A stretch of 64,000 nucleotides of DNA from an uncultured Chloroflexia bacterium (GTDB taxonomy: Bacteria > Chloroflexota > Anaerolineae > JAAYZQ01). Location: positions 416,001 to 480,000 of the forward strand of contig CAVOXA010000010.1 in NCBI GenBank assembly GCA_963700285.1, given 5' to 3'. The notes beneath the pieces are model-generated. The model saw nothing but the letters and a program-made list of their open reading frames with translations. It was not told the DNA's origin and made no database searches. Positions 20,291 through 54,484 of the stretch are shown piece by piece. The stretch's first letter is position 1, and each line of letters begins with the position of its first letter. A program made the translations under genes and the position numbers.

Positions 20291-21910
20291 TTACCCACGG
20301 GGTGGGTCAGCAAGCGGCCCAGGGACTTCGATGAGCCCCGGTTTTCCCGAGGCAAAGGCGGCATCCAGCGCACCGGGCAGTTCGTCCATGGTCTCGATGT
20401 GCAGGCCGGTGGCGCCGTAGGCCTGGGCCAGGCGGGGAAAATCGGGGTTGACCAGATCGGCGGCAAAGATCCGCCCGCCATAGTTCCGCTCCTGCTGGCG
20501 GCGGATGGCGCCAAAGGTATGGTCGTTGACGACAACGGTGACCACGTTCAGTTCATGCTGAACCGCGCAGGCCAGTTCTTGCCCGGTGAACAAAAAGCCG
20601 CCGTCACCGCACAGGCAGATCACGCGCCGGTCGGGGTACGCCGCCTGTGCGCCCAAGGCGGCCGGCAGCCCAAAGCCTAGCGTACCAAAGCCCAGGGGGA
20701 AGAGAAAGGTACGCGGCTCGTACACAGGTTGATGCCATAGCTGCCAACCCCCAACGCAGGCAGCATCGCCAGTGCTAATGCCATCGCGCCCCAGAGCCGC
20801 GCTCAACGCCTGAACGAGGGCCAGGCCATCGGTTCCGGCTGCTGCATCACGCATCTGGTGGCGCACGGCCAGGGCCTCTGTCGCCCAAGGAGCCACAACG
20901 CCGGGCCCAGGCCCATCCAGGGCCTCTGCAAGCTGCCGCAGTACGACCCTGGCATCGCCGGCGAGGCCTACGTCTACCAGATAGTTGCGGCCGATCTGAG
21001 CAGGGTCTATGTCCACCTGTACGAGCCCGATGGGAGGCGGCAGTTGCCAGCCGCCGGTGGTGATCTCATCCAGGTCGGTGCCGATGGCCAGCACGGCATC
21101 GGCCTGCTGCCACAGATTCATGATTGGTTCGAGGCCAAAGACCGCAAAGCCTAGAGCCAGCGGGTGGTCGTCGGGCAGTGCGCCTTTGCCATTGCAGGTG
21201 TTGGCCACCGGCGCACCCAATGCCTCGGCCAAGTCCGCCAGCGCAGCGGTCGCGCCGCTCCAGTGTACCCCACCCCCGGCAAAGATCAGGGGCCGCGTCG
21301 CCTCTCGCAGGATGCGCGCGGCCTGAGCCACGAGTTGTGTGTCAGCGGCAGGCGGGGCCAGATGGGGCGCCGGGGCGATCTCGAGGTCAGCCTCGGCAGC
21401 CAGAACGTCTTCGGGGATCTCGATGTAGGCTGGGCGGGGGCGGCCAGATGTCATAGCCAACCAAGCCTCGTTCACCGCCGCGGGAATGTCGGCCACTCGG
21501 GTAACACGGCGGCTCCACTTGGTGATAGCCCGCGCCATGCCTAGCTGGTCCCGCATCTCGTGGAATACCCCCCGGTCCTGGCCGATGAACCCGGAGGTGA
21601 TCTGGCTGGCGATGACCAGAACGGGCACCGAGTCGCGGTAAGCATCGCCCACTGAGCCCATGATGTTGCCCACCGCCGGACCGGTGGTGACGATGGCGAC
21701 GCCGGGTTGGCCGCTGGCGCGGGCATAGCCATTGGCCATCAGGCCGGCCCCGCACTCGTGGCGGGCCAGGATGTGGCGGATGGATGTCTGTTCGTGATAC
21801 AGTGCATCGTAGATGGGCAGGTTGTGCGTGCCTGGAATACCAAAGACCGTGGTCACGCCGTTGGCCTTCAGAGTTTGCACCAGCACTTGCCCGCCTGTCA
21901 TGCGTGTCAT
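20291..21910 (-). CDS. Thiamine-diphosphate-dependent enzyme (acetolactate synthase / 2-oxoacid decarboxylase family)
   Basis: FGIPGTH, ARHE, TTGP, GTLGFGLPAALGA and the ThDP motif GDGGF..ND. Confidence 0.9.
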   Translation of the reverse strand: MTRMTGGQVLVQTLKANGVTTVFGIPGTHNLPIYDALYHEQTSIRHILARHECGAGLMANGYARASGQPGVAIVTTGPAVGNIMGSVGDAYRDSVPVLVIASQITSGFIGQDRGVFHEMRDQLGMARAITKWSRRVTRVADIPAAVNEAWLAMTSGRPRPAYIEIPEDVLAAEADLEIAPAPHLAPPAADTQLVAQAARILREATRPLIFAGGGVHWSGATAALADLAEALGAPVANTCNGKGALPDDHPLALGFAVFGLEPIMNLWQQADAVLAIGTDLDEITTGGWQLPPPIGLVQVDIDPAQIGRNYLVDVGLAGDARVVLRQLAEALDGPGPGVVAPWATEALAVRHQMRDAAAGTDGLALVQALSAALGRDGISTGDAACVGGWQLWHQPVYEPRTFLFPLGFGTLGFGLPAALGAQAAYPDRRVICLCGDGGFLFTGQELACAVQHELNVVTVVVNDHTFGAIRRQQERNYGGRIFAADLVNPDFPRLAQAYGATGLHIETMDELPGALDAAFASGKPGLIEVPGPLADPPRG

Positions 21911-21958
21911 ATCATTCCCTCCGTGGTTGTTGTCGCTCGAACTCTTGAACTTGCGCTG

Positions 21959-24190
21959 TTACCAACTCTCCTGCATAGTGTGCAGGGCCAACAGCATGTA
22001 CTCCTGGCGCTCCGCCCCAAACTCATCCAGTCGCTGCGCGCAGTCGCGGAGGATCTCGGATGGTATCTCCCCAACGCTATCCATGGGCAACGAGGCGATG
22101 ATGATACGCCGGAGCAACACCGCCCCCGATTCCAGTTCCCTCCTGGCCAGCGCTTCGGCACATTCCTCCATGGCAGCCACGAGCGATGGATCGCTGACCC
22201 TGCGACCGGCCTTTCTCCTCACCGAGGCAACAGCCTGCGAGCTAGCGGTACCTGGATCGATCCGCATCCCCCGCCACAGGTGGATGAAGTGATGCTCATT
22301 GCCGATCAGGCGCGCCAGGGCCAGTGCCAACTCCAAACGCCTATCCTCGCTCGGGCTTTTGTAGAGCATGGCCAGCAGATCGGGAGCGGCCTCTTGCACC
22401 CCCAGGGCACCCAGCGCTGCACCGAAGGCGACGCTCAGATCCTCGTTCGTTTCGGATTGCAGCCGGTCCAGCAGGAGGGGAACCGCTTCGGTATCGCCCA
22501 GGCTGCCCAGCGAGCGAGCACAGTGGGCCTGGACCGAGCGGTATTCGGAACCGAGGCCCTCGCGCAGCACGGGGAGCGCATCCCGGTCCCCCATGCGACC
22601 CAGTGCCCAGGCAGTAATGACGCTCAGGGCTGGTCCCCCTCTATGCAGAACTTTCACCAGGGCACTCGTCAGGCGAGGATCCGAACCGCCGCGCGCGATA
22701 GAGACGATGGCCTCGAAACGCACGTAAAAACGGGGATCATCGAGGGCTTCCAGAAGTTCATCCACCGCCAGAGGGCTCCTGGACTGACCCAGACGCTCAG
22801 TCACCGACACGGTGGCACGCTCGCTTCTGACCAATTGGTACCGGATCAGCGACTCCACTGCACGAAGCGGGTTGCCCCGGAGAAAGAACCCGGCGAACCT
22901 TGCCACGCCGATCTCGCCTTCGGCGCGCACACCTCTGAGAAGCAGCGCGTTCAGCAGGGGAAGGAGGATCGCGGCCAGGAACAAGAAGGAATAGGAATCC
23001 AGGGGAAAAATCAAGAAATAACCCGAGACGCCGACAAACCGGTCGAGCACTCGACCGCCGAGCAATTGCCCAAAGCCTTCGACGATGCTGATCCAGGCAT
23101 AGTACAATGCCAGATAAGAATTATTCTTGTCGGGCGGAACGACGCCGACGAAGAGCAGCCGGCCCAGGCCAATCTGCCAGCCCAGGGTAGCGATCCCCTG
23201 GAAAAAGGCGATGACCAGGGCGACGTAGAGGCTGAGACCAGATTGTCTCGGGAGCAGCCACCAGAGCAGCGCCTGGAGGGCCAGGAGATAGGCCCCCGAG
23301 GCCATGATCGGCTTGCTGCCGTAGCGGTCCGCGGCCCAGCCCCACACGTAGCTTGAGGCCATCCCACCGATCATGGTTCCGGCCTGCAGCCAGACCACGG
23401 CGCCGGAAGGCAGACCCACGTCATCCCGAAGGAACAGAGGGAGAAACGAGACCAGAGGTCCGATGGCCAGCAGCGTCAAACCCACACCCACCGCGAGCAG
23501 GACAAAGTTCTTGTCGCGAGCTGCGATTGTCAGATCCAGGTGAGAGGCTCGCGCAGACCGGCTGCTCTCTACAGGTGCGCCACCAGGAATGAAGGTGGCA
23601 GCGACTAGGGCGATCAGACCAAAGGACACGCCCACAGCAAAGAGGACGTTGAAATCCCGCAAGGTGGGTGCTGAACCCAATACAATTCCGCCCAGCGTGA
23701 CCGCCAGAAAGGACGCCAAGCTCCAGAAGATCTGGTTGATGGCCGAATACTTGCCCCGCACACTGTTGGGTACATATTCTTGGATCCAAGGAAAGACCGC
23801 GGTTATGGCCACAGCGCGGGAGACGGCAAAGGCTGCGACGATGCCAACGATGTACCAAATCACTACCTGTGACCCAAAGGTGGCCAGAACCCAGGGGGTG
23901 AATAGCAAAAAGACGGCGATAAGCTTTCTGCCCCCGAAAAAGATCAGGTAGGTACGCTTGTAGCCATGGCGGGCTACCGCTGGGGCGATGAACAGAGCGA
24001 TGAGGCCGGCAAAGGGCAGGAGGGAGAGGAGGCTGCCGATCTGCGTCTTGGACAGGCCCAATTCGCTAAGAAAGAGTACAAACACCGAGCCAAAGAAGGT
24101 GAGATAGTAAAAGACGGCGTTTGTCGCTTCGGAAAAGATGCTCCACGGAAGCCGGCGCAACTTTTCGGCGTTCGTTAGTTCGCTACTCAT
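21959..24190 (-). CDS. MFS transporter fused to C-terminal HEAT repeats (paralog A)
   Basis: About 12 TM segments with WGWAADRYGSK, followed by HEAT repeats (ALDDPRFYVRFEAIVSI, AWALGRMG, ARSLGSLG). Confidence 0.85.
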   Translation of the reverse strand: MSSELTNAEKLRRLPWSIFSEATNAVFYYLTFFGSVFVLFLSELGLSKTQIGSLLSLLPFAGLIALFIAPAVARHGYKRTYLIFFGGRKLIAVFLLFTPWVLATFGSQVVIWYIVGIVAAFAVSRAVAITAVFPWIQEYVPNSVRGKYSAINQIFWSLASFLAVTLGGIVLGSAPTLRDFNVLFAVGVSFGLIALVAATFIPGGAPVESSRSARASHLDLTIAARDKNFVLLAVGVGLTLLAIGPLVSFLPLFLRDDVGLPSGAVVWLQAGTMIGGMASSYVWGWAADRYGSKPIMASGAYLLALQALLWWLLPRQSGLSLYVALVIAFFQGIATLGWQIGLGRLLFVGVVPPDKNNSYLALYYAWISIVEGFGQLLGGRVLDRFVGVSGYFLIFPLDSYSFLFLAAILLPLLNALLLRGVRAEGEIGVARFAGFFLRGNPLRAVESLIRYQLVRSERATVSVTERLGQSRSPLAVDELLEALDDPRFYVRFEAIVSIARGGSDPRLTSALVKVLHRGGPALSVITAWALGRMGDRDALPVLREGLGSEYRSVQAHCARSLGSLGDTEAVPLLLDRLQSETNEDLSVAFGAALGALGVQEAAPDLLAMLYKSPSEDRRLELALALARLIGNEHHFIHLWRGMRIDPGTASSQAVASVRRKAGRRVSDPSLVAAMEECAEALARRELESGAVLLRRIIIASLPMDSVGEIPSEILRDCAQRLDEFGAERQEYMLLALHTMQESW

Positions 24191-24377: not shown

Positions 24378-25520
24378 TCAGCGGGTGCCATACTTGCGCA
24401 CCAGCTCTAGCACCAGTTGGTAGCGCTCGTAACTAACCTCTGGTGGAACCGAGTGATCGGAGTGATAGATGTAGCCCCCGCCGCCGGCGACAAAGGGCGT
24501 GATCTTGGTCCGGATCTCCTCCTCGATCTCCTCGTCGGTGCCGTTGGCCATGTTAATGACATCGATGTTGCCCCAGAAGGTCAGCCGGTCGCCGTAGGTT
24601 TTGCGCAACTCCCGTACATCCAGGCCAGACTTGGCCTCAAGGGGCTGGATCACCTGCAAGCCACAGTCGATGAGATCCCCAAAGACTGCCTCTGCATTGC
24701 CGCAGCAATGCATCCAAAAGTCGATACCGTTGGCGCTGAGAAACTGGCCCAGTTGGCGGATGAGTGGCTTAAAGATCTGGCGCCAGGTGCGCGGTGACAT
24801 CAGCATGCCCTTGGTGTAGGCTAGGTCTTCGATCATGAAAACACCATCCGGCTTGATGCCCTCATCCAGGCAACGCTGCAGGACAGCGATCAACAGATCC
24901 ATGTAGGTCGAGGCCATTTCGATGACAAAGTCGGGATCGGTGACCAGGTCCATCAGCAATTCGGTAAAGCCCCGATGGCGCCAGGTGGATTCCCAGGGAC
25001 CGTAGGCGTTGCCCAGCACGTAGCGTCCCCGCTGCTGGATCCCGTCAAAAATGCCCTTGGCCTCTGCCCAGGTGGGATAGGGATCCATGTGCATGAAATA
25101 ACTGGCCTGGTCCACACGGGCCGTACCATCCAAGTCCAAGACAAAACGCTCCTTGATCTGATCCCAGGCATCCTTGTCCTTGGTCACATGGTCCATGAAA
25201 TCCATGGTACGGGACTTGCCCTTGGACTTTTTCACCGTATAGCCAAAGCGGTCCTGGTAGATGACATACTCGCCATCATCGCTCAACAGCTTTTGCTCCA
25301 GCCGGGGCGACGCATCCAGCGAAATATAGTCAAAATCAAAACCAAAGTACTCGGGAATGCCGCCCACCGCCTCGCTGAAAACGTCGTTGCTGACCGCTTC
25401 CCGCGAAAGTCCCTCGTCGTACCAGCCGGTGAGAGTGTCCTCCCAAAATGCATCGGTCATCGGTACCCGGTCTGGGTGCTCACGGTTCAGGGTACGAATG
25501 ACCCGTTCTCTGCTATCCAT
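24378..25520 (-). CDS. URO-D/MtaA-fold protein (putative corrinoid methyltransferase MT1-like)
   Basis: M.SRERV....DRVP, EDLAY..G.L.SP, HCCGN, WGNID and GGYIYHSDHSVPP. Confidence 0.85.
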   Translation of the reverse strand: MDSRERVIRTLNREHPDRVPMTDAFWEDTLTGWYDEGLSREAVSNDVFSEAVGGIPEYFGFDFDYISLDASPRLEQKLLSDDGEYVIYQDRFGYTVKKSKGKSRTMDFMDHVTKDKDAWDQIKERFVLDLDGTARVDQASYFMHMDPYPTWAEAKGIFDGIQQRGRYVLGNAYGPWESTWRHRGFTELLMDLVTDPDFVIEMASTYMDLLIAVLQRCLDEGIKPDGVFMIEDLAYTKGMLMSPRTWRQIFKPLIRQLGQFLSANGIDFWMHCCGNAEAVFGDLIDCGLQVIQPLEAKSGLDVRELRKTYGDRLTFWGNIDVINMANGTDEEIEEEIRTKITPFVAGGGGYIYHSDHSVPPEVSYERYQLVLELVRKYGTR

Positions 25521-25616: not shown

Positions 25617-26546
25617 CTAACCTTTGTACTCAAACATCTCCGGGTAGCGTTTCCGGCTGCCCTCAGTAAGCTGGGCCATCTCCTCATCTGTCAGAGGGAT
25701 GTAGGGCGCTCGGGTGACCCGGCTGCCCTTGAGCCAACCGACCATCTCCTGGAAAGCCTTGTCCAGCGTCGGGTCCAGATGGCCCGCCGCGATCAGGGGG
25801 TAGACATCCTTGACCAGCCAGCGGCTGATCCGCCACTGGATCTCTATGGCCTCTTCCCATTCACGCCGTTCGCACATGGCGTACCAATCAAGGATGAACT
25901 CGGGGTTCATCAGGGCATGGGAGCAGTACATACCTTTGGCCCCAAACATCATGCCCATGACCAGGTCGCCCTCGCCGACAAAGTGATTGAGTTCAGGCCC
26001 GTTGACCTGCAGCTCCATCCAAGCGGCGAATTCGGAACTGCAGAACTTGGTGCCGATGAGGTTGGGAACCTCGGCGCAGATTCGTTGATAGTCCTTGCCA
26101 TTCAAGAAACGCTTGGCACGGCGGATGTTATAGTGCACAATACCCACGTCAGGGCAGGCACTACTCAGGTCCACAAAGTACTTGAGCACTTCATCATCGT
26201 TGAGTTCTATCCAGAAGGGCACGGCCACCTGCACGCCGTCGATGCCCCTGTCGGCCGCATAGCGCGCCATGCGGATCGAGTCCCGCGTATTCATCCAACT
26301 GCAACCCACCTGGGTCAGCACTTTGCCCGCCGTGTCTTCCACAAAGATGTCCACCATACGCTCAAATTCGTCAAAATCGAGCGTATGGAACTCGCCGGTG
26401 GAGCCGGTGGTATAAAGGCCGTGCACCCCGCCCTCGATGAGCTTGGCCACATTCTCACGGAAGATCGCCTCGTCCAGATTGCCGTCCTCGTCCCACGGCA
26501 TGGTGACGGACACCCAGACACCTTTCAGATTCTCTTTTGTCAGCAT
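25617..26546 (-). CDS. DapA/NanA-family class I aldolase/lyase
   Basis: GSTGEF, HYNI and the Schiff-base Lys in IGTKF. Confidence 0.88.
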   Translation of the reverse strand: MLTKENLKGVWVSVTMPWDEDGNLDEAIFRENVAKLIEGGVHGLYTTGSTGEFHTLDFDEFERMVDIFVEDTAGKVLTQVGCSWMNTRDSIRMARYAADRGIDGVQVAVPFWIELNDDEVLKYFVDLSSACPDVGIVHYNIRRAKRFLNGKDYQRICAEVPNLIGTKFCSSEFAAWMELQVNGPELNHFVGEGDLVMGMMFGAKGMYCSHALMNPEFILDWYAMCERREWEEAIEIQWRISRWLVKDVYPLIAAGHLDPTLDKAFQEMVGWLKGSRVTRAPYIPLTDEEMAQLTEGSRKRYPEMFEYKG

Positions 26547-26636: not shown

Positions 26637-28871
26637 CTACTTTTGCCAACCCTCATCCATAGCATGGAGGGCCAGCAACAGATACTCCCTTCTTCCATCC
26701 CCAAACTCATCCAGACGTAGAGCACACTCGGCCAGGATCAAAGCCACGGTTTCGCCGGCCGTATCTACAGGCAGCATGGGGATCATGCGGCTGATAGAGG
26801 CCGCACCCTGCTCTAGTTCATCCCGGGCCAGCACCTCAGCGCAGTCCTCCATGGTATCCATGAGAGCCTGGTCATTGACCACACGGCCGACCATTCTCTT
26901 TGCCGTGCTTATGGCCTGCGAAGCCACAGTCCCCGGCTCGGTCCGCATGCCCCGCCAGAGGTGGATGAAATGATGCTCGTTGCCGATCAGGCGTGCCAGC
27001 GCCAGTGCCAGCTCAAGGCGCCCATCTTCATTCTGATTCACGTAAAGCAGTTCAAGCAAATCAGGGGTGGCCTGCCACGCATTCAGCGCTCCCAGTGCCG
27101 AGCCAAAGGCAACGCTCAGGTCCTCGTTTTCCTCCGACCGCATGCGCTCCAGCAGGAGGGGAACAGATTCGACGTCGCCCATGCTGCCCAGTGACCGGGC
27201 ACAGTGGGCCCGAATCGACCGGTACTCGGCGTCGAGGCCCTCGCGCAGGTCAGGGAGCGCATCCTGAGCGCCAATGCGACCCAGTGCCCAAGCGGCAATC
27301 ACACTCAGAGCAGGTTCCTTGCTATTCAGAACCTCGACCAATGCCTCGGTCAGGCGCGGATCCGACTCTCGGCGTGCGATGGAGACGATGGCTTCGAAAC
27401 GCACATAGAACCGGGGGTCGTCCAAGGCCTCCAGTAGCTCATCCACCGTGAGTGGGCTCCTGGACTGGCCCAGGCGCTCGGTCACCGACACTGTGGCCCG
27501 CTCATCCCTGGCCCAGTGGTACCGGATCAACGATTCCGCGGCACGAAACGGGTTCCCTCGGATAAAGAACCCGGCGAATTTTGCCACGCCGACAGTGCTT
27601 TCGGTATGCACGCCTCTGAGCAGCAGGGTGCTGAGCATCGGCAGGACAGCGGCAATAATAAAGAGAACCGAATAGGCGTCAACAGGGAGGAACAGGAACT
27701 GACCAGAGAGGTCCGCAAAACGATCCAGCAGCCGGCCACCATACAACTGCCCCAGGCCTCCGACGACGCCGATGAAAGCATAGTAGAGGGCCATGTAGCC
27801 AGCCTTTTTTTCAGGCGGAACGACGCCAACGTAGAGCATTCGGCCAGAACCGATCTGCCATCCCAAACTGGCCACTCCCTGGAAGGCGGCAATGGCCAAG
27901 GCAATGTACAGGCTCACGACTGATTGGCGCGGCATCAACCACCACAGGAGCGGCAGGACTGCCAGCAGGTAAGCGCCCGAGGCCATGATCGGCTTACTAC
28001 CATATCGGTCGGCTGCCCAGCCCCACACATAGCTGGCAAGGAGGCCGCCCGCCAGGGTTCCTGCCTGCAGCCAGACCACAACGCCAGTGGACAGCCCCAC
28101 TTGGTCACGTAGGAAAAGGGGCAGAAATGACGCGACAGGACCAGTGGCCAGCATTGTGAGCCCCACACCCACCGCGTGCCGCACAAAGTTGCTGTCGCGG
28201 ACTGCTGCGGCCATGTCCTGGTGCGGGGTCCCTTCTGTCTGACCTTTCTTGACCGGCGCACCGCCCGGAATAAAGCTTGCAGCGCCCAGGGAGACTAGGC
28301 CAAAAAACAGACCCACGGCAAACAGGATGTTGAAATCGCCCAGGTTGGGATCTGAACCCAACACATAGCCGCCCAGTGTGACGGCCATGAAAGAGGTCAA
28401 GCTCCAGAATACCAGGTCAATCGCCGAGTATTTGCCCCGCACACTGCTGGGCACGTATTCCTGGACCCAGGGATAGAGGGCAGTGATAGAGACGGCGCGG
28501 CAGACGGCAAAGACAGCGACGACGCCAACGACGTAGCGGGTCACGGCCTGGGACCCAAAATGAGCCAAAACCAGGGGGGTCAGAAGCAGAAAGACTGTAA
28601 TGATCTTTCTGCCCGCAAAGAAGGTCAGGTAAGTTCGCTTGTAGCCGTACCGGGCGACGGCTGGGGCAATGAATAGGGCGATGAGGCCAGCGAAGGGCAA
28701 TAGAGAGAGAAGGGTACCGATTTCTGTTTTGGTGAGCCCCAGCTCGTTGAGAAAGAGCACAAACACGGAGCCAAAGAAAGTAAGATAGACGTATACGGCG
28801 TTGGTTGCATTGGCGAGTATGCTCCAAGGCAAGCGACGCAGTTTCTCGGCGTTCGTCGGTTCACTGGTCAT
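26637..28871 (-). CDS. MFS transporter fused to C-terminal HEAT repeats (paralog B)
   Basis: Full-length collinear paralog of 21959-24190 (744 vs 743 aa). Confidence 0.85.
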   Translation of the reverse strand: MTSEPTNAEKLRRLPWSILANATNAVYVYLTFFGSVFVLFLNELGLTKTEIGTLLSLLPFAGLIALFIAPAVARYGYKRTYLTFFAGRKIITVFLLLTPLVLAHFGSQAVTRYVVGVVAVFAVCRAVSITALYPWVQEYVPSSVRGKYSAIDLVFWSLTSFMAVTLGGYVLGSDPNLGDFNILFAVGLFFGLVSLGAASFIPGGAPVKKGQTEGTPHQDMAAAVRDSNFVRHAVGVGLTMLATGPVASFLPLFLRDQVGLSTGVVVWLQAGTLAGGLLASYVWGWAADRYGSKPIMASGAYLLAVLPLLWWLMPRQSVVSLYIALAIAAFQGVASLGWQIGSGRMLYVGVVPPEKKAGYMALYYAFIGVVGGLGQLYGGRLLDRFADLSGQFLFLPVDAYSVLFIIAAVLPMLSTLLLRGVHTESTVGVAKFAGFFIRGNPFRAAESLIRYHWARDERATVSVTERLGQSRSPLTVDELLEALDDPRFYVRFEAIVSIARRESDPRLTEALVEVLNSKEPALSVIAAWALGRIGAQDALPDLREGLDAEYRSIRAHCARSLGSMGDVESVPLLLERMRSEENEDLSVAFGSALGALNAWQATPDLLELLYVNQNEDGRLELALALARLIGNEHHFIHLWRGMRTEPGTVASQAISTAKRMVGRVVNDQALMDTMEDCAEVLARDELEQGAASISRMIPMLPVDTAGETVALILAECALRLDEFGDGRREYLLLALHAMDEGWQK

Positions 28872-40389: not shown

Positions 40390-40443
40390 AGCACCCAGTA
40401 CCCTAAGGCGCACTCTGCATCCACAATAAACAAGGAGAAAAGG

Positions 40444-41464: not shown

Positions 41465-42412
41465 ATGGCACAGGAGCCGGATCTGCGTCTGGCGATGTTG
41501 GGCATGGTAGATGGCAATGGCCACCCCTACTCATGGAGCGCCATGTTCAACGGTTACGATCCTGAGGTAATGGCTGACTGCCCCTATGCTGGGATCCCCG
41601 AATACCTGGACAAGGAACCCAAAGAGACGCTCCAAATCCCGGGCGCGCGGGTGACCCACATCTGGGCCGACGACCCTGCAGACGCGGTGCACGTGGCCCG
41701 CGCCAGCCTCATTCCTCATGTCGTGGCTCGAGCGGAAGACGTCATCGGCCACGTGGACGCGGTGATCGTCGCGACCGACATGGGCTACGAGCACGTGGAG
41801 CGCTGCCGCCCCTTTGTGGAAGCCGGCCTGCCCGTCTTTGTGGACAAGCCTTTGACCGATAATGAGCCGGACCTGGTACAGTTTGGGGAATGGGTGAGGG
41901 CAGGTAAGCGCATCATGTCCTCAAGCTGCATGCGTTACGCCAAGGAATTCTGGCCGTACCGGACTTCAACCCACGAATTGGGCGAGTTGCGCTACGCTTC
42001 CATCACGACGCCCAAGAGCTGGGAGCGCTATGGTATCCACGCCCTGGAGGGGGTATATCCAATCCTGGGTCCAGGGTTTGTCTCGGCTCGCAACACCGGC
42101 ACGGAGGATCGCAACATTGTCCACCTGGAGCACGAGTGCGGCGCCGACGTGGTCATTGCCGCCATCAGCGATATGTATGGCGCCTTTGGGGCGCTGACCC
42201 TGGCCGGAACCAGCGGGCACGTCGCAGTCAGCTTTGGCGACACGTTCTATGCCTTCAGGACCCAACTCGTGGCCTTTGTCGAGTATCTGCGGACGGGTCA
42301 ACGGGCGTTCCCGTTCTCGGAAACGGTCGAGATGATAAAGATCATCATTGCCGGCATTCGCAGTCGTGAGGAAGGCGGGCGCAAAGTGCTACTGGTCGAG
42401 ATCGAGGGCTAG
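41465..42412 (+). CDS. Gfo/Idh/MocA-family oxidoreductase
   Basis: VDAVIV, H......AGLPVFVDKPL, SS.MRYA and YGIHALE. Confidence 0.85.
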   Translation: MAQEPDLRLAMLGMVDGNGHPYSWSAMFNGYDPEVMADCPYAGIPEYLDKEPKETLQIPGARVTHIWADDPADAVHVARASLIPHVVARAEDVIGHVDAVIVATDMGYEHVERCRPFVEAGLPVFVDKPLTDNEPDLVQFGEWVRAGKRIMSSSCMRYAKEFWPYRTSTHELGELRYASITTPKSWERYGIHALEGVYPILGPGFVSARNTGTEDRNIVHLEHECGADVVIAAISDMYGAFGALTLAGTSGHVAVSFGDTFYAFRTQLVAFVEYLRTGQRAFPFSETVEMIKIIIAGIRSREEGGRKVLLVEIEG

Positions 42413-45862: not shown

Positions 45863-46038
45863 GCGGGCACAAGCTACAGCCAGCGGCCGATCCACTGCCG
45901 GCAGCACAGGGAGAGTGCGAAGCATGACATCACGTCCTTGCAGGCAGGTGGGAGAACATCGTCGCCTTTTTTCAGGCCATTGAGGAGTTCGGATATTATC
46001 GAGAGAACCGACTGTAAAGATTTGAAACGTAGTAGAGC

Positions 46039-46094
46039 GTCGAACAAGTTGGTGTAGCGGACGGCTGGCCGCCGCCGCTGAACAGGGGTGAGCC
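46039..46094 (+). mobile_element. Degenerate solitary integron attC-like site
   Basis: GTCGAAC (R''-like), then AAGTTGGTGTAGCGGACGGC-TGGCC-GCCGCCGCTGAAC, then GTGAGCC (R'-like, 1 mismatch to GTTRRRY). It follows a short ORF end. Confidence 0.45.
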
Positions 46095-46135
46095 AAGGGA
46101 ATGCGGATCGAGGGTAACGCACAAGGAGGGGAGGA

Positions 46136-47518: not shown

Positions 47519-48585
47519 CGCCAGACACAGGGAGAAAGACAACGAATCCGCTCTATTTCCGCGACCACAGCCGGAAGGAACTCCTGGAACACGTCGGGCA
47601 CATGGACCAGGTGGCGGGCGTCCAACTGCTCGAAGCCGGCGATGGGTTGGCGCGAGGCAGCCGGGTGCTCCAGGTATGGACCGGCACCGGGCTGTCGTTC
47701 GACGTTCTAGCCGACCGGGCGCTGGACATCTCCGCCTGCCGCTACAAGGGCGTTCCCCTGGCCTGGATTTCGCCAGTCGGCGACGTCCATCCCAGTTACT
47801 ACGAGCCGGATGGCGCGGGTTGGCTGCGCTCCTTCCAGGGCGGCCTGCTGGTCACCTGCGGCCTGGACCACTTTGGCTACCCCTCCGACGACGGGGGCGA
47901 AGCATTGGGCCTCCACGGACGGGTGAGCAACCTGCCCGCCCGCTACGTGAGGCACCGCGCGGCCTGGCAGGGCGACGAGTACAAGCTCGAGGTCAGTGGG
48001 CAAGTGCGCCAGGCGCGGGTATTCGGCGAGAATCTGGTGTTGCGCCGGCGCATCTCGACGCGCCTGGGCTCCAATCGGATATGGATCGAGGACGAGGTTG
48101 CCAATGAGGGCTTTGCACCCCAGCCACACATGATCCTCTATCACTTCAACCTGGGCTTTCCCCTGCTCAGTGAGGACACCCGCCTGCACGTCGAGGTAGA
48201 GGGCACGGCCCCGCGCGATGCCGATGCAGAGGCCGGGCTGGCTGATTGGATGAGGTTTCAGCCGCCGACCGAGGGGTACCGGGAGCAGGTCTTTTGCCAC
48301 GTGCCCAAAGTCGGTGCCGACGGACGGGTCCGGGTGGGGTTGGAGAATCCGACTCTGGGCCTGGGCTTGCGCTGGACCTACGACCGGGCCAGTCTGCCAC
48401 ACCTGTTCCAGTGGAAAATGATGGGCCAGGGACTGTACGTGCTCGGGGTGGAGCCAGCCAACAGCAGCGGGATGCAGGGCCGCGCCTCTGCCCGGCAGAG
48501 CGGCGACCTGCCCTATCTGGCGCCAGGTGAGAGCCGCCGCTACGCGCTAGAGCTCGAGGTGGTCGAGAGTTCGCAGTCGAGGTAG
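47515..48585 (+). CDS. Aldose 1-epimerase-family protein (DUF4432)
   Basis: DRALDI, F.GGLL.TCGL, LHGR.SN.PA, LYHFN.G and LGVEP. Confidence 0.88.
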   Translation: MTPDTGRKTTNPLYFRDHSRKELLEHVGHMDQVAGVQLLEAGDGLARGSRVLQVWTGTGLSFDVLADRALDISACRYKGVPLAWISPVGDVHPSYYEPDGAGWLRSFQGGLLVTCGLDHFGYPSDDGGEALGLHGRVSNLPARYVRHRAAWQGDEYKLEVSGQVRQARVFGENLVLRRRISTRLGSNRIWIEDEVANEGFAPQPHMILYHFNLGFPLLSEDTRLHVEVEGTAPRDADAEAGLADWMRFQPPTEGYREQVFCHVPKVGADGRVRVGLENPTLGLGLRWTYDRASLPHLFQWKMMGQGLYVLGVEPANSSGMQGRASARQSGDLPYLAPGESRRYALELEVVESSQSR

Positions 48586-48615
48586 CGGCAGAGTGATGAG
48601 AGGAGGAATTATCCT

Positions 48616-49614
48616 ATGAACTCGTTGCATAGCCGTCCGGCCATTGACGCTCACGTACACGTTCATCCGGACTCAATAGCCGACCTAGCATTCATCATGA
48701 AGGCCAACAATCTGAGCCAGGTGGTGAACCTGGGCATCCTGGAATTGCTCGGCATCCCGGTCGAAGAGGGGATGCGTACTTTCCGCCGGGCGCTAGGCCA
48801 GCATATGGCCTATTTTTCCACACCCGATTTCAGGGATACCTCTCCTGGCTTTGGCCGGCGCATGGCGGACGAACTGGCACGCAGAGTGGAAGCCGGGGCC
48901 GCCGGTCTCAAGATCTTTAAGGAGCTGGGGTTGCGGCACAAGGACGCCAGCGGCAACCTCATCCCCGTGGACGATCCGCGCCTGGACCCCCTGTGGGCCA
49001 TGGCCAGCGAGCTGGGCGTGCCCGTGCTCATCCATACCGCCGACCCGGTGGCCTTTTTCCAGCCGCTGGAACCAGACAACGAGCGATGGGAGCAATTGCA
49101 GGTCCATCCTGACTGGCACTTTGGCGGGCCCGAGTTCCCCGGCCACGACGACCTACTGGCCCAACGAAACCGCGTCATCGAGCGGCATCCGGAGACCACG
49201 TTCATCGGCGCGCACCTGGGCAACTACCCGGAGGATCTGGCCTACGTGGCTGCCTGCCTGGAGCGCTATCCCAACTTTAGCGTGGACACCAGCGCCCGCA
49301 TCGGCGAGTTTGGCCGTCACCCTGTCGATAAAGTGCGAGCCTTCTTTGCCAAGCACCAGGATCGCATACTCTTTGGTACCGATTCAACAATCGGCTGGGA
49401 CGCCTCTGACGGAGTACCGGAGAGTGTGACAGAGTTGAACCTCTTCTACGATGCGCACTGGCGCTACTTTGAGACCGACGCACGACAGATAGAGGATCCA
49501 TTCTACCCCATCCACGGTCACTGGCATGTGGATGCTCTCGATCTGCCGGACGAGGTGTTGGACAAGCTGTACATTCAGAATGCGCGACGGCTGATCCCCG
49601 GCTTGCAGGTTTGA
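48616..49614 (+). CDS. Amidohydrolase_2 family protein
   Basis: IDAHVH, GLKIFK.LGL, PVLIHTADP, IGAHLG and RILFGTD. Confidence 0.9.
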   Translation: MNSLHSRPAIDAHVHVHPDSIADLAFIMKANNLSQVVNLGILELLGIPVEEGMRTFRRALGQHMAYFSTPDFRDTSPGFGRRMADELARRVEAGAAGLKIFKELGLRHKDASGNLIPVDDPRLDPLWAMASELGVPVLIHTADPVAFFQPLEPDNERWEQLQVHPDWHFGGPEFPGHDDLLAQRNRVIERHPETTFIGAHLGNYPEDLAYVAACLERYPNFSVDTSARIGEFGRHPVDKVRAFFAKHQDRILFGTDSTIGWDASDGVPESVTELNLFYDAHWRYFETDARQIEDPFYPIHGHWHVDALDLPDEVLDKLYIQNARRLIPGLQV

Positions 49615-49657
49615 GCCACACCACACAACGACGTTCTGCTATCAAGCTGGTGGAGGT

Positions 49658-49845
49658 GTGCTGGTTCAGCGTGTGGGGTTCCATATCCACGAACAGTATG
49701 AAACAAGGGGAGTTCCACGATGAACAGGGTGACTGTCAGCCAAGTGGAGCAAATCCAACGAGCGACCAAAGATCTGCTGGAAAACGTCGGTGTGCAAGTG
49801 ATGCACCATGGGCTGTTGTAGCGCACCTGCACTGCGGGGGTGCAG
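49658..49845 (+). repeat. 188-bp diverged direct repeat, copy 1 (upstream region and 5' end of the mttB-like gene)
   Basis: Aligns without gaps to 51061-51248 and carries TAG at 49819 where copy 2 has CAA. Confidence 0.9.
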
Positions 49846-49932
49846 CCGGCCGTGCTCACCGTGGTCCTGGATGCCAAGCGCATCAACGAGGCGCAGTCCT
49901 TGATCGACTTTTTTGAAGGGGGCGAGTCGTGA
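49720..49932 (+). pseudogene. Chimeric remnant: mttB-like N-terminus (with nonsense codon) joined in frame to an unrelated C-terminus
   Basis: MNRVTVSQVEQIQRAT..HHGLL*RTCTAGVQ followed by PAVLTVVLDAKRINEAQSLIDFFEGGES*. The stop overlaps the next start (GTGA). Confidence 0.65.
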
Positions 49933-50924
49933 AGTTTTTACAGGTAGGCCTGGGTTCCATGGGCAAGCGGCGCATTCGCTGCGTGCACGACCTGCGCGCG
50001 GGGGAGGTGATCGGCTTTGATCTGCGGGCCGATCGCCGTGAGGAAGCGGAGCGCCTGTACGGCATCCGCACGGTGCAAGACTTTGAGGCGGGCCTGGCGA
50101 CCGAGCCGGACGCTGTCATCATCTCCACCCCGCCCAACCAGCACGTCGAATACGGGCTGGCGGCGCTGGCCGCGGGCAAGCCGTTCTTTGCCGAAGAGAC
50201 GATCATGCTCGACCCGGGGGCGCTGGATCCGCTCATCGCCGCTGCTGAGACGAGCGGCTTACTCGCTGCCCCCAGTTGTACCATGCGTTCCCACCCAGCC
50301 ATCAAGCAGATCAAAAAAGTTCTCGAAAGCGGGGAAATCGGCCAGCCGTGGAACTTTAACGCCCACTGTGTAAGCTACCTGCCCGGCTGGCATCCCTGGG
50401 AGCGTGTCCAGGATTTCTACGTCCGCAGCCGGGTCAGCGGCGGCGGGCGGGAGATGGTGGCTTTCGAGCTGGACTGGCTGGAATGGCTTTTTGGACCGGT
50501 GACGTCTGTGGCTGCCGATATCGGCAAGAGATCGGACCTTCCTGCCGATATCGACGACACCTTCCAGATGTTGTGGCACTTTGCCGGGGGGCTGCCCGGC
50601 AGCCAGACCGTCAGTGTGGCCTACCACGTGCCGGGGCGGGGAATAGAGATCAGCGCTAGCGAGGGACAGATCATTTGGAACGGCCGCATCCACCAGGTTG
50701 CCGTCTATACCGCCGGCGACGGCAAGTGGCGGCGGTACATGGAAACGGACAGCTTGGTTTTTGGCTACGACCGCATGTACATCGAGGAGCTGGCTCACTT
50801 TGTCCGGGCCTTGCAGGGCCAAGAGAGCTATGGGCGCAGTTTTCGCGACGCGCAGCGGATGCTCCAGGTGTTGCGCGTAGTGGAGCGCAGCGCCAGCGAG
50901 GGTCGGCGGCTATTGTTGGCCTGA
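49929..50924 (+). CDS. Gfo/Idh/MocA-family oxidoreductase
   Basis: KFLQVGLGSMGKR, ISTPP..H, SYLPGWHPWE, GGG....ELD.L.WLFG and MYIEE..HF. Confidence 0.9.
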   Translation: MKFLQVGLGSMGKRRIRCVHDLRAGEVIGFDLRADRREEAERLYGIRTVQDFEAGLATEPDAVIISTPPNQHVEYGLAALAAGKPFFAEETIMLDPGALDPLIAAAETSGLLAAPSCTMRSHPAIKQIKKVLESGEIGQPWNFNAHCVSYLPGWHPWERVQDFYVRSRVSGGGREMVAFELDWLEWLFGPVTSVAADIGKRSDLPADIDDTFQMLWHFAGGLPGSQTVSVAYHVPGRGIEISASEGQIIWNGRIHQVAVYTAGDGKWRRYMETDSLVFGYDRMYIEELAHFVRALQGQESYGRSFRDAQRMLQVLRVVERSASEGRRLLLA

Positions 50925-51060
50925 GCGAGGGTTGCACGCGCATTCTGGATCGAGCAGCGTCGAGGATAGCGCTAGTTGGCAGAAGATTCGATGCTCATCG
51001 AAGCTGTACCTCAGGGGGACTGACAGGGTGGGGGGGATTGCCCAGGCAAAGAGACAGGCC

Positions 51061-51248
51061 GTGTTGGTTCAGAGTGCGGGGTACCGCATCCACGAACACT
51101 ATGAAACAAGGAGAGTTCCACGATGAACAGGTTGACTGTCAGCGAAGTGGAGCAAATCCAACGAGCGACCGAAGATCTGCTGGAAAACGTCGGTGTGCAG
51201 GTGATGCACGATGGGCTGCTGCAACGCGCCCGGGCCGGGGGGGCGCAG
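51061..51248 (+). repeat. 188-bp diverged direct repeat, copy 2
   Basis: Matches 49658-49845. Confidence 0.9.
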
Positions 51249-52526
51249 GTGGACGAGGCCAGCGGCGTGGTGCGCCTGCCGGCGGCGCTGTTGCGGGAGT
51301 TGCTAGCCCATGCGCCGGCGCAGTACCAAATCTCCGACCTGTTTGGCAACGAGTTTACCGTTGGTGGCGAACAGAGCGGTTGTCTGGCCATTGTTACTGA
51401 CCCGTGGATCATTGATTTTGCGACGCAGCGGCCGCGCCGGCCCTGCCTGGAGGACCTACGACGGCACACCATCATCGCCCAGAAACTGGAATCGGTGGTG
51501 GCTGTCAGTTGCATGGACTACCCTGTCACCGATGTGGAAGGGCCTACCTCCAACCTGCGTGCATTTCAAGAGCATCTGACTCACTATAGCAAGCACATCT
51601 ACATCCTGCCCACATCGGTGGAGAGTTTTGAGCGCTGGCTGGCGATCGGCGAGGTTCTGACCCAGGAGAGAGAACTGATCGGGAGCAGGCTCTTTACCAT
51701 CGGCATTCCAGTGCTTTCGCCACTGCGACTCACCGAAGCCAACGCCGAGCTGCTGATCAGGTCCTGCGCCTACGATTTTCCCATCGTGTCCACCGTCTGC
51801 CCCATGGCCGGGACGACCGGGCCCTACAACCAGATGGGAACACTGCTGTTGGGCAACGCCGAGAACGCCTTTCTGGCAGCCATGACGCAGATCGTCCGGC
51901 CCGACCAGCCATACCTCTACGCCCAGGGTCCTTCGCGGACCGAGATGAAGTCGGGCGACGACATGTATTACACCCTGGACAAGGTGCTCTGGAAACTTGG
52001 GGCTGCACAACTGGGCCAGGCCTACAACCTGCCGGTGTCCTCAGAGTGCGGCGGCACAATGACCTACCGCTACGACCAGCAGAACGGTGCCGAAGGGATG
52101 CTCTTTATGCTGGCGGCCTGTGAGTCAGGGGCAACTCTCCTGGCCGGGATCGGTTCCTGCTACAACGCCGTCGGCATGTCGGCAGAGATGATGGTCATCC
52201 AGACAGCCTGGCTGGAAGCAGCCAGGTTCCTGGATCGAGGCATAGACAGTGAGGGGTTGGGCCCGGCGCTGGACAGCATCAAGCGGGTCGGCCCGGGCGG
52301 ACACTATCTGGCCGACGAGCTGACACTCAAAACCCTGCGCACCGGTGAGTTCTTTGAGCAGGAGATCTTTGATCACACCGGCGCCTACGGACCCTACCCC
52401 TCCATGCTGGAACGAGCTCACGCGAAAGTGGAGCAGATGGTGTCCGGCTTTGAGAGTCCCCTGCCTGGCCAGGTCCAGGAGGATCTGAGGCGCCATTTTC
52501 ACGATCTGTACGAGAAGCTGGGGTAG
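51123..52526 (+). CDS. MttB-superfamily (trimethylamine methyltransferase family) corrinoid methyltransferase, non-pyrrolysine
   Basis: I..AT..LLENVG, SPL, PMAG.T.P....GTL...NAE.., YNLP, D.Q.G.E and VGPGGHYL....T. No in-frame amber codon. Confidence 0.85.
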   Translation: MNRLTVSEVEQIQRATEDLLENVGVQVMHDGLLQRARAGGAQVDEASGVVRLPAALLRELLAHAPAQYQISDLFGNEFTVGGEQSGCLAIVTDPWIIDFATQRPRRPCLEDLRRHTIIAQKLESVVAVSCMDYPVTDVEGPTSNLRAFQEHLTHYSKHIYILPTSVESFERWLAIGEVLTQERELIGSRLFTIGIPVLSPLRLTEANAELLIRSCAYDFPIVSTVCPMAGTTGPYNQMGTLLLGNAENAFLAAMTQIVRPDQPYLYAQGPSRTEMKSGDDMYYTLDKVLWKLGAAQLGQAYNLPVSSECGGTMTYRYDQQNGAEGMLFMLAACESGATLLAGIGSCYNAVGMSAEMMVIQTAWLEAARFLDRGIDSEGLGPALDSIKRVGPGGHYLADELTLKTLRTGEFFEQEIFDHTGAYGPYPSMLERAHAKVEQMVSGFESPLPGQVQEDLRRHFHDLYEKLG

Positions 52527-52663: not shown

Positions 52664-53443
52664 ATGGGTGTATTGGAGAGTTTTTCTTTGGCTGGGCGAG
52701 TGGCGGTCGTGACAGGCGGAGCCGGGCTCTATGGGCGGCAGATCGTCGAGGCGCTGGCCGAGGCCGGGGCCTATGTCTTTGCGGCGAGCCGCAACCTCGG
52801 CGCTCTGGAGGAGCTAGCTTCCGAATTGGGCAAGAGGGGCTTGCAGGTGGAGGCCCGCCAGTTGGACCTGGCGAGCGAAGAATCGATTCTCGCCTTGTGC
52901 GATGCGATGATGGGGCAGATGGGCCGGGTGGACATCCTGGTCAACAACGCGGTGCTGCGCCCCATGCGCAGCCACGACGCACCCAAGGAGCAGTGGGAGC
53001 AGAGCATGGCGGTCAATGCCACCGGCCTGTTCCTGATCAGCCGCGCCTTTGGCCAGCTCATGGCCGGGGCTGGCCGGGGGAGCATCGTCAACATCGGCTC
53101 CATCCAGGGCATGATCGGGCCTGATGATTGGCTCTACGAAGAGGTGCCGTGGACCGGATTCATCCCCGACTATTTCTTCCACAAGGGTGGCATGCTCAAC
53201 CTGACGCGCTACATGGCCGCAGTTCTAGGCCCCAAGGGCGTCCGGGTGAACACCCTCAGTCCCGGCGGCTTTTTCAATAACCAGGGCGAGGGGTTTGTGT
53301 GGCGCTACGAGCGTCGCACTTTCCTGGACCGCATGGCCGACGAGACGGATCTCAAGGGAGCAGTTGTCTTTTTGGCCTCCGATGCCTCGGCCTATGTGAC
53401 CGGCGCTAATCTGGTCGTGGATGGTGGGTATACGGCCAAGTAG
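52664..53443 (+). CDS. SDR-family oxidoreductase (resembles PtmA-like nonulosonate-pathway SDRs)
   Basis: VTGGAGLYG, ILVNNA, GSIVNIGS, YxxxK (YFFHK), VRVNTLSPGG and VDGG. Confidence 0.9.
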   Translation: MGVLESFSLAGRVAVVTGGAGLYGRQIVEALAEAGAYVFAASRNLGALEELASELGKRGLQVEARQLDLASEESILALCDAMMGQMGRVDILVNNAVLRPMRSHDAPKEQWEQSMAVNATGLFLISRAFGQLMAGAGRGSIVNIGSIQGMIGPDDWLYEEVPWTGFIPDYFFHKGGMLNLTRYMAAVLGPKGVRVNTLSPGGFFNNQGEGFVWRYERRTFLDRMADETDLKGAVVFLASDASAYVTGANLVVDGGYTAK

Positions 53444-53551
53444 CTACACACAAATCATGACTCGGCCGGAAGCCTGGGTCTGATGACAGATCTTCGCCCT
53501 TCCACGAGAAGAGAGTTCGCCCAGCTTGAGCCCGGCATGGTGAGAGAGAAA

Positions 53552-54484
53552 ATGGAAAAGAGTATCCTCGATCTTGGTTTTTCGCGGCTGGCCGTGGGCA
53601 CGGTACAGTTCGGCCTGCCCTACGGGGTCGCCAACCGGACCGGTCAGCCCTCCTTCAAACAGGTCTGTGAGATCCTGGCCTGCGCCGTCGAGAACGGGGC
53701 GACGACGTTGGATACCGCGGCAGCCTACGGCGAGAGCGAGTCGGTCCTGGGGCGGGCGCTGCGCGAGATCGGCGCCCTGGATCAAGTGACCATCGTCAGC
53801 AAAGTGCGCCACCTCAAGACCATGGGACAGGAACACACCCCGGAGAACATTGAGCGCTGGATCCGGGACTCTGTGACCTCGTCGCTGCAGAACCTGGGCA
53901 TCGACAGCCTGCCGGTATGCCTCTTTCACGATACCGTCGACGTGGCCCACATGGACGTGCTGCTCGCGCTCAAGCGAGAGGGATTGGTGCAACACGCAGG
54001 GGTATCGGTGGTCAGGCCTGACCAGATGGAGATGGTCCTCTCTACTCCAGGTATGGAAGCCATCCAGGTTCCCATGAACATGCTGGACCAGCGCATCCAG
54101 CGTTCGGGGGATCTGGCCAGGGCGGCGGAGGCCGGGATGGCGGTGTTCGTGCGCAGCATCTACTTGCAGGGCCTGCTGGTCATGCCCCTGGACGGGATCA
54201 TGCCGGCGCTGCACCAGGTCGTGCCTGTTCGCCAGGTACTGCAGCAGATCGCCGGCGATGCGGGCTTGACGATGCCCGAGATGGCCCTGCGCTATGGCCT
54301 GTCCCTGCCCGGGGTGACCAGCATATTGACCGGCGTGGAAACCGTGGAGCAGATGGAGGCCAACGCCAAGATCGCCACCCGGGGCCCTCTGCCACCGGAG
54401 GTCGTCAGCGCAGTCGACGGGGCTGTGCCTGATCTGTCAGACACCATCGTTCTCTCACCCTGGCTGTGGCCGGGGTCGATGTGA
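53552..54484 (+). CDS. Aldo/keto reductase
   Basis: LAVGTVQFGLPYG..N, DTAAAYGESE..LG, GVSV, IQVP.N.LD and RSIYLQGLL. Confidence 0.9.
   Translation: MEKSILDLGFSRLAVGTVQFGLPYGVANRTGQPSFKQVCEILACAVENGATTLDTAAAYGESESVLGRALREIGALDQVTIVSKVRHLKTMGQEHTPENIERWIRDSVTSSLQNLGIDSLPVCLFHDTVDVAHMDVLLALKREGLVQHAGVSVVRPDQMEMVLSTPGMEAIQVPMNMLDQRIQRSGDLARAAEAGMAVFVRSIYLQGLLVMPLDGIMPALHQVVPVRQVLQQIAGDAGLTMPEMALRYGLSLPGVTSILTGVETVEQMEANAKIATRGPLPPEVVSAVDGAVPDLSDTIVLSPWLWPGSM

Follow-up and report, generated by a model that had tools for sequence, protein, structure and literature searches.

The stretch analysed here, hereafter the window, comprises 64,000 nucleotides of contig C10 (positions 416,001-480,000) from an uncultured Chloroflexia bacterium, whose genome assembly (G000; 7.05 Mb) is 89% complete with 6.5% contamination. 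Window positions 20291-54484, hereafter the two-arm region, carry two divergent gene arms that encode seven URO-D-fold proteins (U1 to U7), one member of the MttB superfamily and a large set of sugar-processing families. The right arm, together with the BNR/Asp-box protein gene, is a module conserved across phyla: BNR, the Gfo/Idh/MocA oxidoreductase Gfo1, U7, an amidohydrolase-aminotransferase fusion, MttB, a short-chain dehydrogenase/reductase (SDR) and an aldo-keto reductase (AKR). This module is real, conserved and uncharacterised, and probably catabolic. Its component families are known; the new part is their combination, the MttB subfamily and the exchange of MttB for a PhyH dioxygenase, and we found no description of these three in the literature searched, whose coverage was incomplete. 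Other contigs of the host are labelled likewise (C14, C22), G001 is a same-genus genome, and foreign loci carry the letter L.

An earlier note, made from the letters of this DNA alone, had listed the gene classes of both arms, and family searches recovered every one of them. There are seven PF01208 matches (26-222 bits, cut-off 23.9) and one to PF06253 (180 bits), four oxidoreductases (two Gfo, SDR and AKR), a thiamine diphosphate (ThDP)-family enzyme and two transporters. The latter belong to the major facilitator superfamily (MFS), carry C-terminal HEAT repeats and are mutually 71% identical. The amidohydrolase and aminotransferase families were also found, but one Amidohydro_2 domain and the class III aminotransferase form a single fused gene. 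The reading frame of this fusion is broken by one base near 45641, probably an assembly error, since both relatives with the region (G001 and the locus L092) lack the extra base and many MttB matches in the host assembly are likewise split. A TIGR04076 protein and a remnant of the mttB 5' end had been overlooked. The 101-residue open reading frame (ORF) at 49611-49916 was rejected as a gene, being the duplicated start of mttB.

Table 1 Features of the window, in window coordinates.
Positions	Strand	Feature	Remarks
20291-21910	-	ThDP-dependent enzyme, acetolactate-synthase-like family	left arm, unconserved outside lineage
21959-24190	-	MFS transporter fused to HEAT repeats, copy 1	
24378-25520	-	URO-D-fold U1	putative metal site H-x-C...H
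25617-26546	-	DHDPS-family class I aldolase 1	GSTGE, Tyr and Lys present; 86 bits vs NanA
26637-28871	-	MFS-HEAT transporter, copy 2	
28944-30071	-	URO-D-fold U2	H-x-D...D
30068-31174	-	U3, MtaA/CmuA-family methyltransferase	H-x-C...C zinc motif; above NCBIfam cut-offs
31177-32349	-	URO-D-fold U4	H-x-C...C
32346-33497	-	URO-D-fold U5	weak (26 bits), H-x-C only
33588-33920	-	TIGR04076 small Cys protein	homologues adjoin MttB in 7/59 clusters
33951-35165	-	AGE-like N-acylglucosamine 2-epimerase	
35265-35744	-	Cupin, lyxose-isomerase-like	orthologues 71-75% in 3 module loci
35741-36742	-	BadF/NagK-type sugar kinase	not ROK NanK
36821-37522	-	NanE, ManNAc-6-P epimerase family	single copy in genome
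37519-38715	-	URO-D-fold U6	Y-x-C...S, without His ligand
38723-39850	-	BNR/Asp-box propeller, core module	no hydrophobic segment, no RIP motif
39884-39911	-	Leftward sigma70-like promoter	
39948-39976	+	Rightward sigma70-like promoter	extended -10
40444-41379	+	DHDPS-family aldolase 2	atypical GAGGD motif
41465-42412	+	Gfo1, atypical Gfo/Idh/MocA oxidoreductase, core module	
42416-43543	+	URO-D-fold U7, core module	H264-x-D266...D348
43543-45862	+	Amidohydro_2 + class III aminotransferase fusion, core module	extra base near 45641
46136-47518	+	L-fucose-isomerase-like protein	within 45875-51150 block
47515-48585	+	DUF4432	presumably aldose-epimerase-like
48616-49614	+	AH2, Amidohydro_2 protein	
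49658-49861	+	Remnant of mttB 5' end, not a gene	85% copy of 51061-51264
49929-50924	+	Gfo2, Gfo/Idh/MocA oxidoreductase	62-70% orthologues in other module loci
51123-52526	+	MttB-superfamily protein, core module	non-pyrrolysine, distinct subfamily
52664-53443	+	SDR, core module	PtmA-like among best NCBIfam matches
53483-54484	+	Aldo-keto reductase (AKR), core module	
55044-64000	+	Continuation: sugar ABC transporter, Zn-ADH, Ldh_2, amidohydrolase, E1 alpha	

Conservation was followed through the loci of two core proteins. Homologues of the BNR protein number 1,436, of which the top 120 are 63-90% identical to it, and its loci are the best 80 of 208 from genomes. For MttB, 79 loci (38 of them under 8 kb) derive from the best 80 of 137 metagenome matches and collapse at 90% identity to 59 clusters. 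Window orthologues accompany MttB in 54/79 loci (at least one) and 35/79 (at least two), or 42/59 and 28/59 after collapsing. The partners among the 59 clusters are the aminotransferase (22), the amidohydrolase (20), BNR (18), U7 (13), SDR (10), Gfo1 (9), TIGR04076 (7) and AKR (5). An HpcH aldolase occurs in nine MttB loci and three BNR loci, with aldolases of the dihydrodipicolinate synthase (DHDPS) family in others. Further neighbours of BNR or MttB orthologues are NanM-SSF fusions (three), YhcH (one), NanM beside MttB (one), GDSL esterases (ten) and AGE. A region-wide orthologue test, covering C10:380-600k and one control stretch, gave 22 ORF frames, some of them shadow frames, with orthologues in at least two foreign loci, against none in the control; de novo clustering of neighbours was swamped by such shadow frames.

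Window-type MttB is present in 14 of 49 BNR-bearing genomes, which were hand-picked from 80, four of them for known MttB (the independent count is 10/45), in 1/60 relatives and in 0/120 phylum members. All 14 MttB-bearing genomes have the aminotransferase. The earlier note had joined the methyltransferases to nan genes. What recurs across phyla is a core of MttB, U7, aminotransferase, BNR, SDR, Gfo and a pyruvate-type aldolase, whereas NanE is found in 0/14 of these genomes, a NanA-like gene in just 6/14, and AGE in 13/14 but unlinked. NanE and the kinase are limited to the near-identical loci L001 and L092, save for one kinase match at 28%. The left arm and NanE are thus not recurrent with the module; the left arm is a lineage-specific add-on, and a single pathway for the whole region was an overstatement.

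The cluster does not end at 54484, where the earlier note had placed its right end: it runs about 75 kb further, to about C10:544,000, and spans about 108 kb in this genus. On the same strand from 55044 onwards, it contains ABC transporters, two PseC/LegC-like aminotransferases, a PIG-L deacetylase, two sulfatases, a second BNR type, an FGGY kinase, a second isomerase, six more URO-D genes and a second MttB. NagA-like (178 of 226 bits) and NagB-like proteins, a creatininase-family hydrolase, an Fe-dependent alcohol dehydrogenase and an HpcH aldolase are also encoded there. A NanA candidate and the NagA/NagB-like genes lie 45-60 kb to the right. This candidate, the best of the genome, at C10:528,463-529,368, reaches 240 of 281 bits and has all of the GSTGE, YNIP, KFTS and GxDE motifs, the last being the sugar-binding motif of NanA. 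In G001 the gene order of the continuation is preserved, with identities of mostly 83-98%, and in foreign loci (for example L149, L016, L019 and L181) parts of the right arm stand side by side with parts of the distant C10:487-532k block.

Two conserved families without a Pfam match accompany BNR orthologues. Proteins of about 150 residues adjoin them in 9/80 loci (L005, L011, L024, L025, L026, L033, L039, L047 and L055) and occur in the host at C10:496,196-496,663. Another protein, of about 300 residues and also without an NCBIfam match, is found in five BNR loci (for example L077:9091-9984) and at C10:521,193-522,161 of the host, with 59-62% identity.

The window MttB belongs to its superfamily (PF06253, 180 bits against a cut-off of 25) and its predicted fold is intact, with a mean confidence (pLDDT) of 90.9 and a template-modelling (TM) score of 0.86 to MtgB/MttB. 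It is not of the pyrrolysine type: its 467 residues are read without an in-frame stop, and TIGR02369 gives 179 bits against a cut-off of 525. In the fold (TM 0.84-0.86), in the uninterrupted frame and in a host equipped with corrinoid proteins, the corrinoid activator RACE and a tetrahydrofolate (THF)/Wood-Ljungdahl route, it resembles MtgB of Desulfitobacterium hafniense and MtcB, MtpB, MtyB and MthB of Eubacterium limosum. It differs from them in sequence (about 23% identity), in lacking the conserved Arg and betaine-binding residues described in PMC13080624, in having sugar-acid enzymes and no corrinoid gene as neighbours, and in the presence of PhyH in the module where RACE is missing. Small methylamines or acidic quaternary amines are the substrates of all members whose function has been tested (PMC13080624). 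The subfamily has at least 547 homologues at E<=1e-80, in phyla that overlap those of the BNR homologues. Its invariant residues are D93, H158, C226, D286, E308, C309 and E355; such Asp, Glu, Cys and His residues would suit a cationic amine other than betaine.

Corrinoid machinery, for which the earlier note had pointed to the rest of the genome, is indeed encoded there: 16 B12-binding_2 matches, RACE, pterin-binding methyltransferases, AcsB-type CdhC and formyltetrahydrofolate synthetase (FTHFS). A Wood-Ljungdahl cluster at C22:26-39k matches pterin methyltransferase, RACE, CdhC/AcsB and FTHFS. None of this lies in the cluster, so that at best it could serve in trans. Host corrinoid proteins are encoded, among other places, at C10:1,096k and C14:430k. 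RACE and a stand-alone corrinoid protein are present in 14/14 MttB-bearing genomes, against RACE in 24/35 others (Fisher p=0.02, among genomes that are kin and thus not independent), and 0/11 RACE-less genomes carry a window-type MttB. Several MttB genomes hold just one corrinoid protein, which fits a shared hub. We consider it likely that the window MttB demethylates its substrate in a corrinoid-dependent manner. The earlier note described the pathway as anaerobic; the host is not established as a strict anaerobe, because it has two heme-copper oxidase loci.

Elsewhere in the host, arrays of MttB with corrinoid proteins occur at C14:389-431k, C1:297-312k (plus RACE) and C6:169-191k. In L019, a 696-codon open frame (1658-3745) joins an MttB orthologue to a URO-D-like C-terminal part, a possible MttB/URO-D fusion.

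RACE-less genomes retain the aminotransferase or the whole fusion, and 8/11 of them have a PhyH orthologue (the genome of the query counted), against 0/16 MttB genomes. No PhyH gene was found in the 79 MttB loci. Among the RACE-less genomes with a located aminotransferase, 5/8 have a PhyH gene no more than 10 kb away from it (G109, G071, G090, G094 and G085; not in G080, G081 and G068), adjacent or nearly so in four of the five, and PhyH carries an H-x-D site. L201 represents the module without MttB or URO-D: it comprises PhyH, the fusion, an HpcH aldolase, AKR, Gfo1 and SDR. Oxidative demethylation is a standard reaction of Fe/2-oxoglutarate dioxygenases, so the simplest reading is that MttB and PhyH are two solutions to one step.

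URO-D-fold genes are numerous throughout the host, with 52 profile matches, or 57 loci by a home-made profile. Seven of the 57 lie in the two-arm region and 13 in the wider cluster, and there are 59 MttB matches genome-wide; the expansion is thus not specific to this locus, as the earlier note had it. The two densest 35-kb URO-D bins of the genome still fall in the wider cluster. The fold serves as the first methyltransferase (MT1) on aromatic methyl ethers, and U3 is a full member of the MtaA/CmuA family (TIGR01463, 256 against 235 bits; PRK06252, 274 against 244), its H-x-C...C motif aligning to 4ay7. The others stay below the MtaA/CmuA cut-offs (at most 89 bits) and show the metal-site motifs HCH (U1), HDD (U2), HCC (U4), HC- (U5), YCS (U6) and HDD (U7). 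Five of these six keep H-x-C/D, U6 being without His, and the H264-x-D266...D348 site of U7 is found in 12/13 orthologue rows. The URO-D-fold proteins of the window, U3 included, differ from the MtaA/CmuA and URO-D-fold MT1 O-demethylases of acetogens and methanogens in having no cognate corrinoid gene in the operon and in their sugar-catabolism setting. A HemE function was rejected: TIGR01464 gives at most 55 of 303 bits, and the RQAGR motif of HemE is absent from 47 aligned proteins (U5 outside the set). At E<=1e-20, four RACE-bearing module genomes count 27, 20, 14 and 6 URO-D proteins, and two RACE-less ones 1 each. U3, being of the MtaA type, may demethylate the corrinoid; other substituents are probably the targets of the URO-D proteins, as additional O-/N-demethylases.

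The nan-type genes of the window resemble the degradation of N-acetylneuraminic acid (Neu5Ac) by NanA, NanK/NagK, NanE/AGE, NagA, NagB, NanM and YhcH only in part. NanE is a clear member (NF002231, 227 against 189 bits; PF04131, 153 against 27). The AGE-like epimerase passes PF07221 (183 against 23) and remains below NF052547 (353 against 600), with the catalytic Arg/His/His motifs of AGE in place. The two aldolases named NanA/DapA by the earlier note are of the DHDPS family and have the Schiff-base Lys and Tyr, but score only 86 and 73 bits with the NanA model PRK04147 (cut-off 281). Its kinase is present but of the BadF type (PF01869; NagK model 94 of 370 bits) and not a ROK NanK. Canonical GH33 sialidases carry an (F/Y)RIP motif with the first Arg of the catalytic triad. 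The sialidase-like protein has four Asp-boxes, but shows AYFP in the RIP position in 25/26 aligned rows and ATFP in one, matches sialidase structures only weakly and locally, and has no hydrophobic leader; its start at 39850 was set from homologue length and promoter position. The added demethylases, aminotransferases, amidohydrolases and several oxidoreductases are unneeded for Neu5Ac.

The substrate class is suggested by the relatives of the aminotransferase and the SDR. The best annotated aminotransferase match (52%) comes from Halorussus, where its cluster also encodes NeuB, a cytidylyltransferase, Gfo and an S-adenosylmethionine (SAM) methyltransferase; the second (48%) comes from Pseudosulfitobacter, where a pseB-pseC-AKR-pseG-pseI cluster carries it as a fusion with a cytidylyltransferase. 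The only SDR match (47%) stands between a class III aminotransferase and NeuB. Further plasmid matches, H3-H6, reach 34-37%. In a tree of 41 rows, the 52% and 48% matches nest with the window enzyme in a 100/99 clade of 30, and the aminotransferase of the SDR-match cluster and the host paralogues fall outside it. In gene tables of PMC3694923 the same gene adjoins pseG and a cytidylyltransferase, PMC7371886 describes a Pse cluster in which AKR and cytidylyltransferase are fused, and an 8-amino-nonulosonate and Kdo8N are natural structures according to PMC3210612. The nonulosonate idea of the earlier note gains independent support from these biosynthetic contexts and from the NanA candidate outside the window; the nan genes proper are not in the core.

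With nonulosonate-biosynthesis clusters, the module shares the aminotransferase subfamily, the SDR and weaker Gfo and AKR matches; here, in contrast, are aldolases and importers. No NeuB, cytidylyltransferase (CMP-transferase) or glycosyltransferase was found among the annotated genes of the cluster, and NeuB in the host genome amounts to a 43-bit partial match. A biosynthetic reading was rejected on these grounds, and the same contrast leads us to take the direction as catabolic. The substrate is probably of the ulosonate type; that it is specifically an N-methyl-8-amino-nonulosonate is rather doubtful.

On balance we favour the view that the module degrades N-methylamino and amino ulosonates from microbial surface glycans by demethylation, transamination, reduction and aldol cleavage, a chemistry that we infer at every step. 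The substrate would be imported by the MFS-HEAT and ABC transporters. MttB would transfer the N-methyl group to a corrinoid protein whose gene lies elsewhere, the URO-D proteins also demethylating. A pterin-binding methyltransferase would then hand the methyl group on to THF, and so to the C22 Wood-Ljungdahl cluster. The fused amidohydrolase-aminotransferase may remove first the acyl and then the amino group, by transamination to a ketone that SDR, AKR or Gfo would reduce. A pyruvate-type aldolase could then split the backbone into pyruvate and an aldose. N-acetylmannosamine (ManNAc), if formed, would enter AGE, the kinase, NanE and the NagA/NagB-like enzymes, and other aldoses the isomerase and the FGGY kinase. 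On the biosynthesis side, oxidation and transamination would make such sugars and SAM enzymes may N-methylate them, steps that the module would reverse.

According to PMC8053191, microbial surfaces and the biofilm matrix widely contain modified nonulosonates, and the same literature searches found no described route for their breakdown. Tentatively, and with less than even confidence, we propose that the module is this missing route for bacterial amino- and N-methylamino-nonulosonates. It would reverse the tailoring chemistry of the biosynthesis clusters for legionaminic and pseudaminic acids. The new MttB subfamily would supply N-demethylases of amino sugars that depend on cobalamin and share one corrinoid hub in trans; in aerobes PhyH would take the place of MttB. 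If true, the turnover of microbial surface glycans would supply methyl groups to the Wood-Ljungdahl pathway in members of Chloroflexota, Planctomycetota, Verrucomicrobiota, Latescibacterota and Hydrogenedentota. Activity of an MttB member on an amino sugar would extend the range of the superfamily and assign a function to a family of at least 547 proteins; it would also suggest a reason for the dozens of URO-D-fold genes in glycan-degrading anaerobes. The MttB/PhyH swap and the kinship to biosynthetic aminotransferases narrow the question to a few testable enzymes and substrates.

Several results speak against this proposal. The active site of MttB is unlike that of any tested member, because in a sequence-only alignment the substrate residues of MtgB are replaced. 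Y97, R312, H348 and F356, which bind betaine in MtgB (PMC13080624), become V91, S306/307, A341 and A349. Genes for a corrinoid protein, RACE or a pterin methyltransferase, which MtgB has nearby in the same account (PMC13080624), were found in 0/79 MttB loci, in 0/80 BNR loci and nowhere in the window. As an O2-dependent enzyme PhyH would in any case be expected to be missing from anaerobes, and only its adjacency to the aminotransferase is real evidence; PhyH enzymes also hydroxylate or deaminate. In two RACE-less planctomycete genomes (L205 and L207) the aminotransferase stands alone beside ftsH with no module genes. MttB has no partner in 25/79 loci, many of them short contigs, and the left-arm URO-D genes are without conserved context. 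The kinship and hand-picking of the genomes, the missing NanE and the scarce NanA-like genes count on the same side.

Some of these points would also be explained if the MttB and URO-D barrels had turned into metal enzymes that work on amino-sugar acids without cobalamin, as hydrolase, lyase or deaminase, and with no methyl transfer. A corrinoid gene is found in 0/159 loci, the MtgB binding residues are lost, with invariant Asp, His, Cys and Glu residues instead, and U7 has H-x-D...D in place of the H-x-C...C of MtaA, its structure matching UroD (TM 0.59-0.67) nearly as well as the top match MtaA (TM 0.62-0.63). The distribution of RACE goes the other way: it accompanies window-type MttB in 14/14 genomes, together with a corrinoid protein, and the URO-D counts are 6-27 in RACE-bearing module genomes and one in each of two RACE-less genomes. 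We regard this explanation as quite unlikely.

The substrate might instead be a natural product, an N-methylated aminoglycoside, aminocyclitol or opine-like compound, and not a sugar acid of surface glycans. The best solved relatives of the aminotransferase are generic class III enzymes, C-6' aminoglycoside aminotransferases among them, which also counts against an ulosonate substrate. Those of PhyH include SnoK/SnoN and EvdO2, which act on antibiotic sugars, and genes for FAD amine oxidases of the DAO family occur in four loci. These structural matches are nonetheless far more distant than the 48-52% matches in NeuB/PseI clusters, and pyruvate-type aldolases, NanM-SSF, YhcH and SusC/D genes fit keto-deoxy acids derived from glycans. 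Such a natural product is very unlikely in our judgement.

It is also conceivable that the region is a loose scavenging one, of independent operons for O-methyl and amino sugars, in which the nan genes are mere neighbours and the module substrate is not a nonulosonate. Its looseness is visible in the 50/57 URO-D loci outside the two-arm region, with other clusters on C10 and C14, in the genome-wide MttB matches and in the mere 21-30% pairwise identity of the seven URO-D proteins. The left arm and NanE, unconserved with the module, and a 5.3-kb block missing from two relatives agree with it. Against it, parts of the right arm and of the C10:487-532k block are co-located in the foreign loci named above, and the kinship of the aminotransferase and the SDR is with clusters for ulosonate biosynthesis. 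We hold it to be unlikely.

The 5.3-kb block (45875-51150; isomerase, DUF4432, amidohydrolase and Gfo2) is the only part missing from G001 and L092. It carries a 204-nt duplicate of the mttB 5' end, 85% identical (49658-49861 and 51061-51264). The nearest foreign locus, L001, has an identical gene order at 86-96% identity. The term island, used in the earlier note, was not upheld, and a mobile or genomic island was rejected: the GC content of 0.57-0.65 is ordinary (0.608 contig-wide), no tRNA was found bordering the region, and the flanks are syntenic in G001. Its description of the transcription units held. The back-to-back promoters form a near-consensus pair, with sigma70-like scores of 11/12 and 10/12 (two found against 0.4 expected), and both are retained in G001 and L092; overlapping stop and start codons occur at 6/26 gene junctions, three more having gaps of 2-7 nt.

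Searches of the remaining features returned little: an Rfam scan of the whole window gave no match, the 460-nt leader folds no better than shuffled sequence (z about +1), family searches matched none of the long antisense ORFs (21707-23356, for example), and no solved relative of the amidohydrolase domain was found. ESM Atlas offered only generic names for that domain and the BNR protein, and Gfo2 had no plasmid match at 1e-30. Outside the two-arm region, a minus-strand operon at 13766-19231, syntenic in G001, encodes a hydantoinase/carbamoylase-like amidase, a Cys/Met pyridoxal phosphate (PLP) lyase, a dihydropyrimidinase and a PLP decarboxylase. The long leader of the right arm contains an 86-codon ORF at 40130-40390 (+), whose first 23 codons are near-invariant in G001 and L092 and whose remainder has diverged; it is possibly a leader peptide or a gene remnant.

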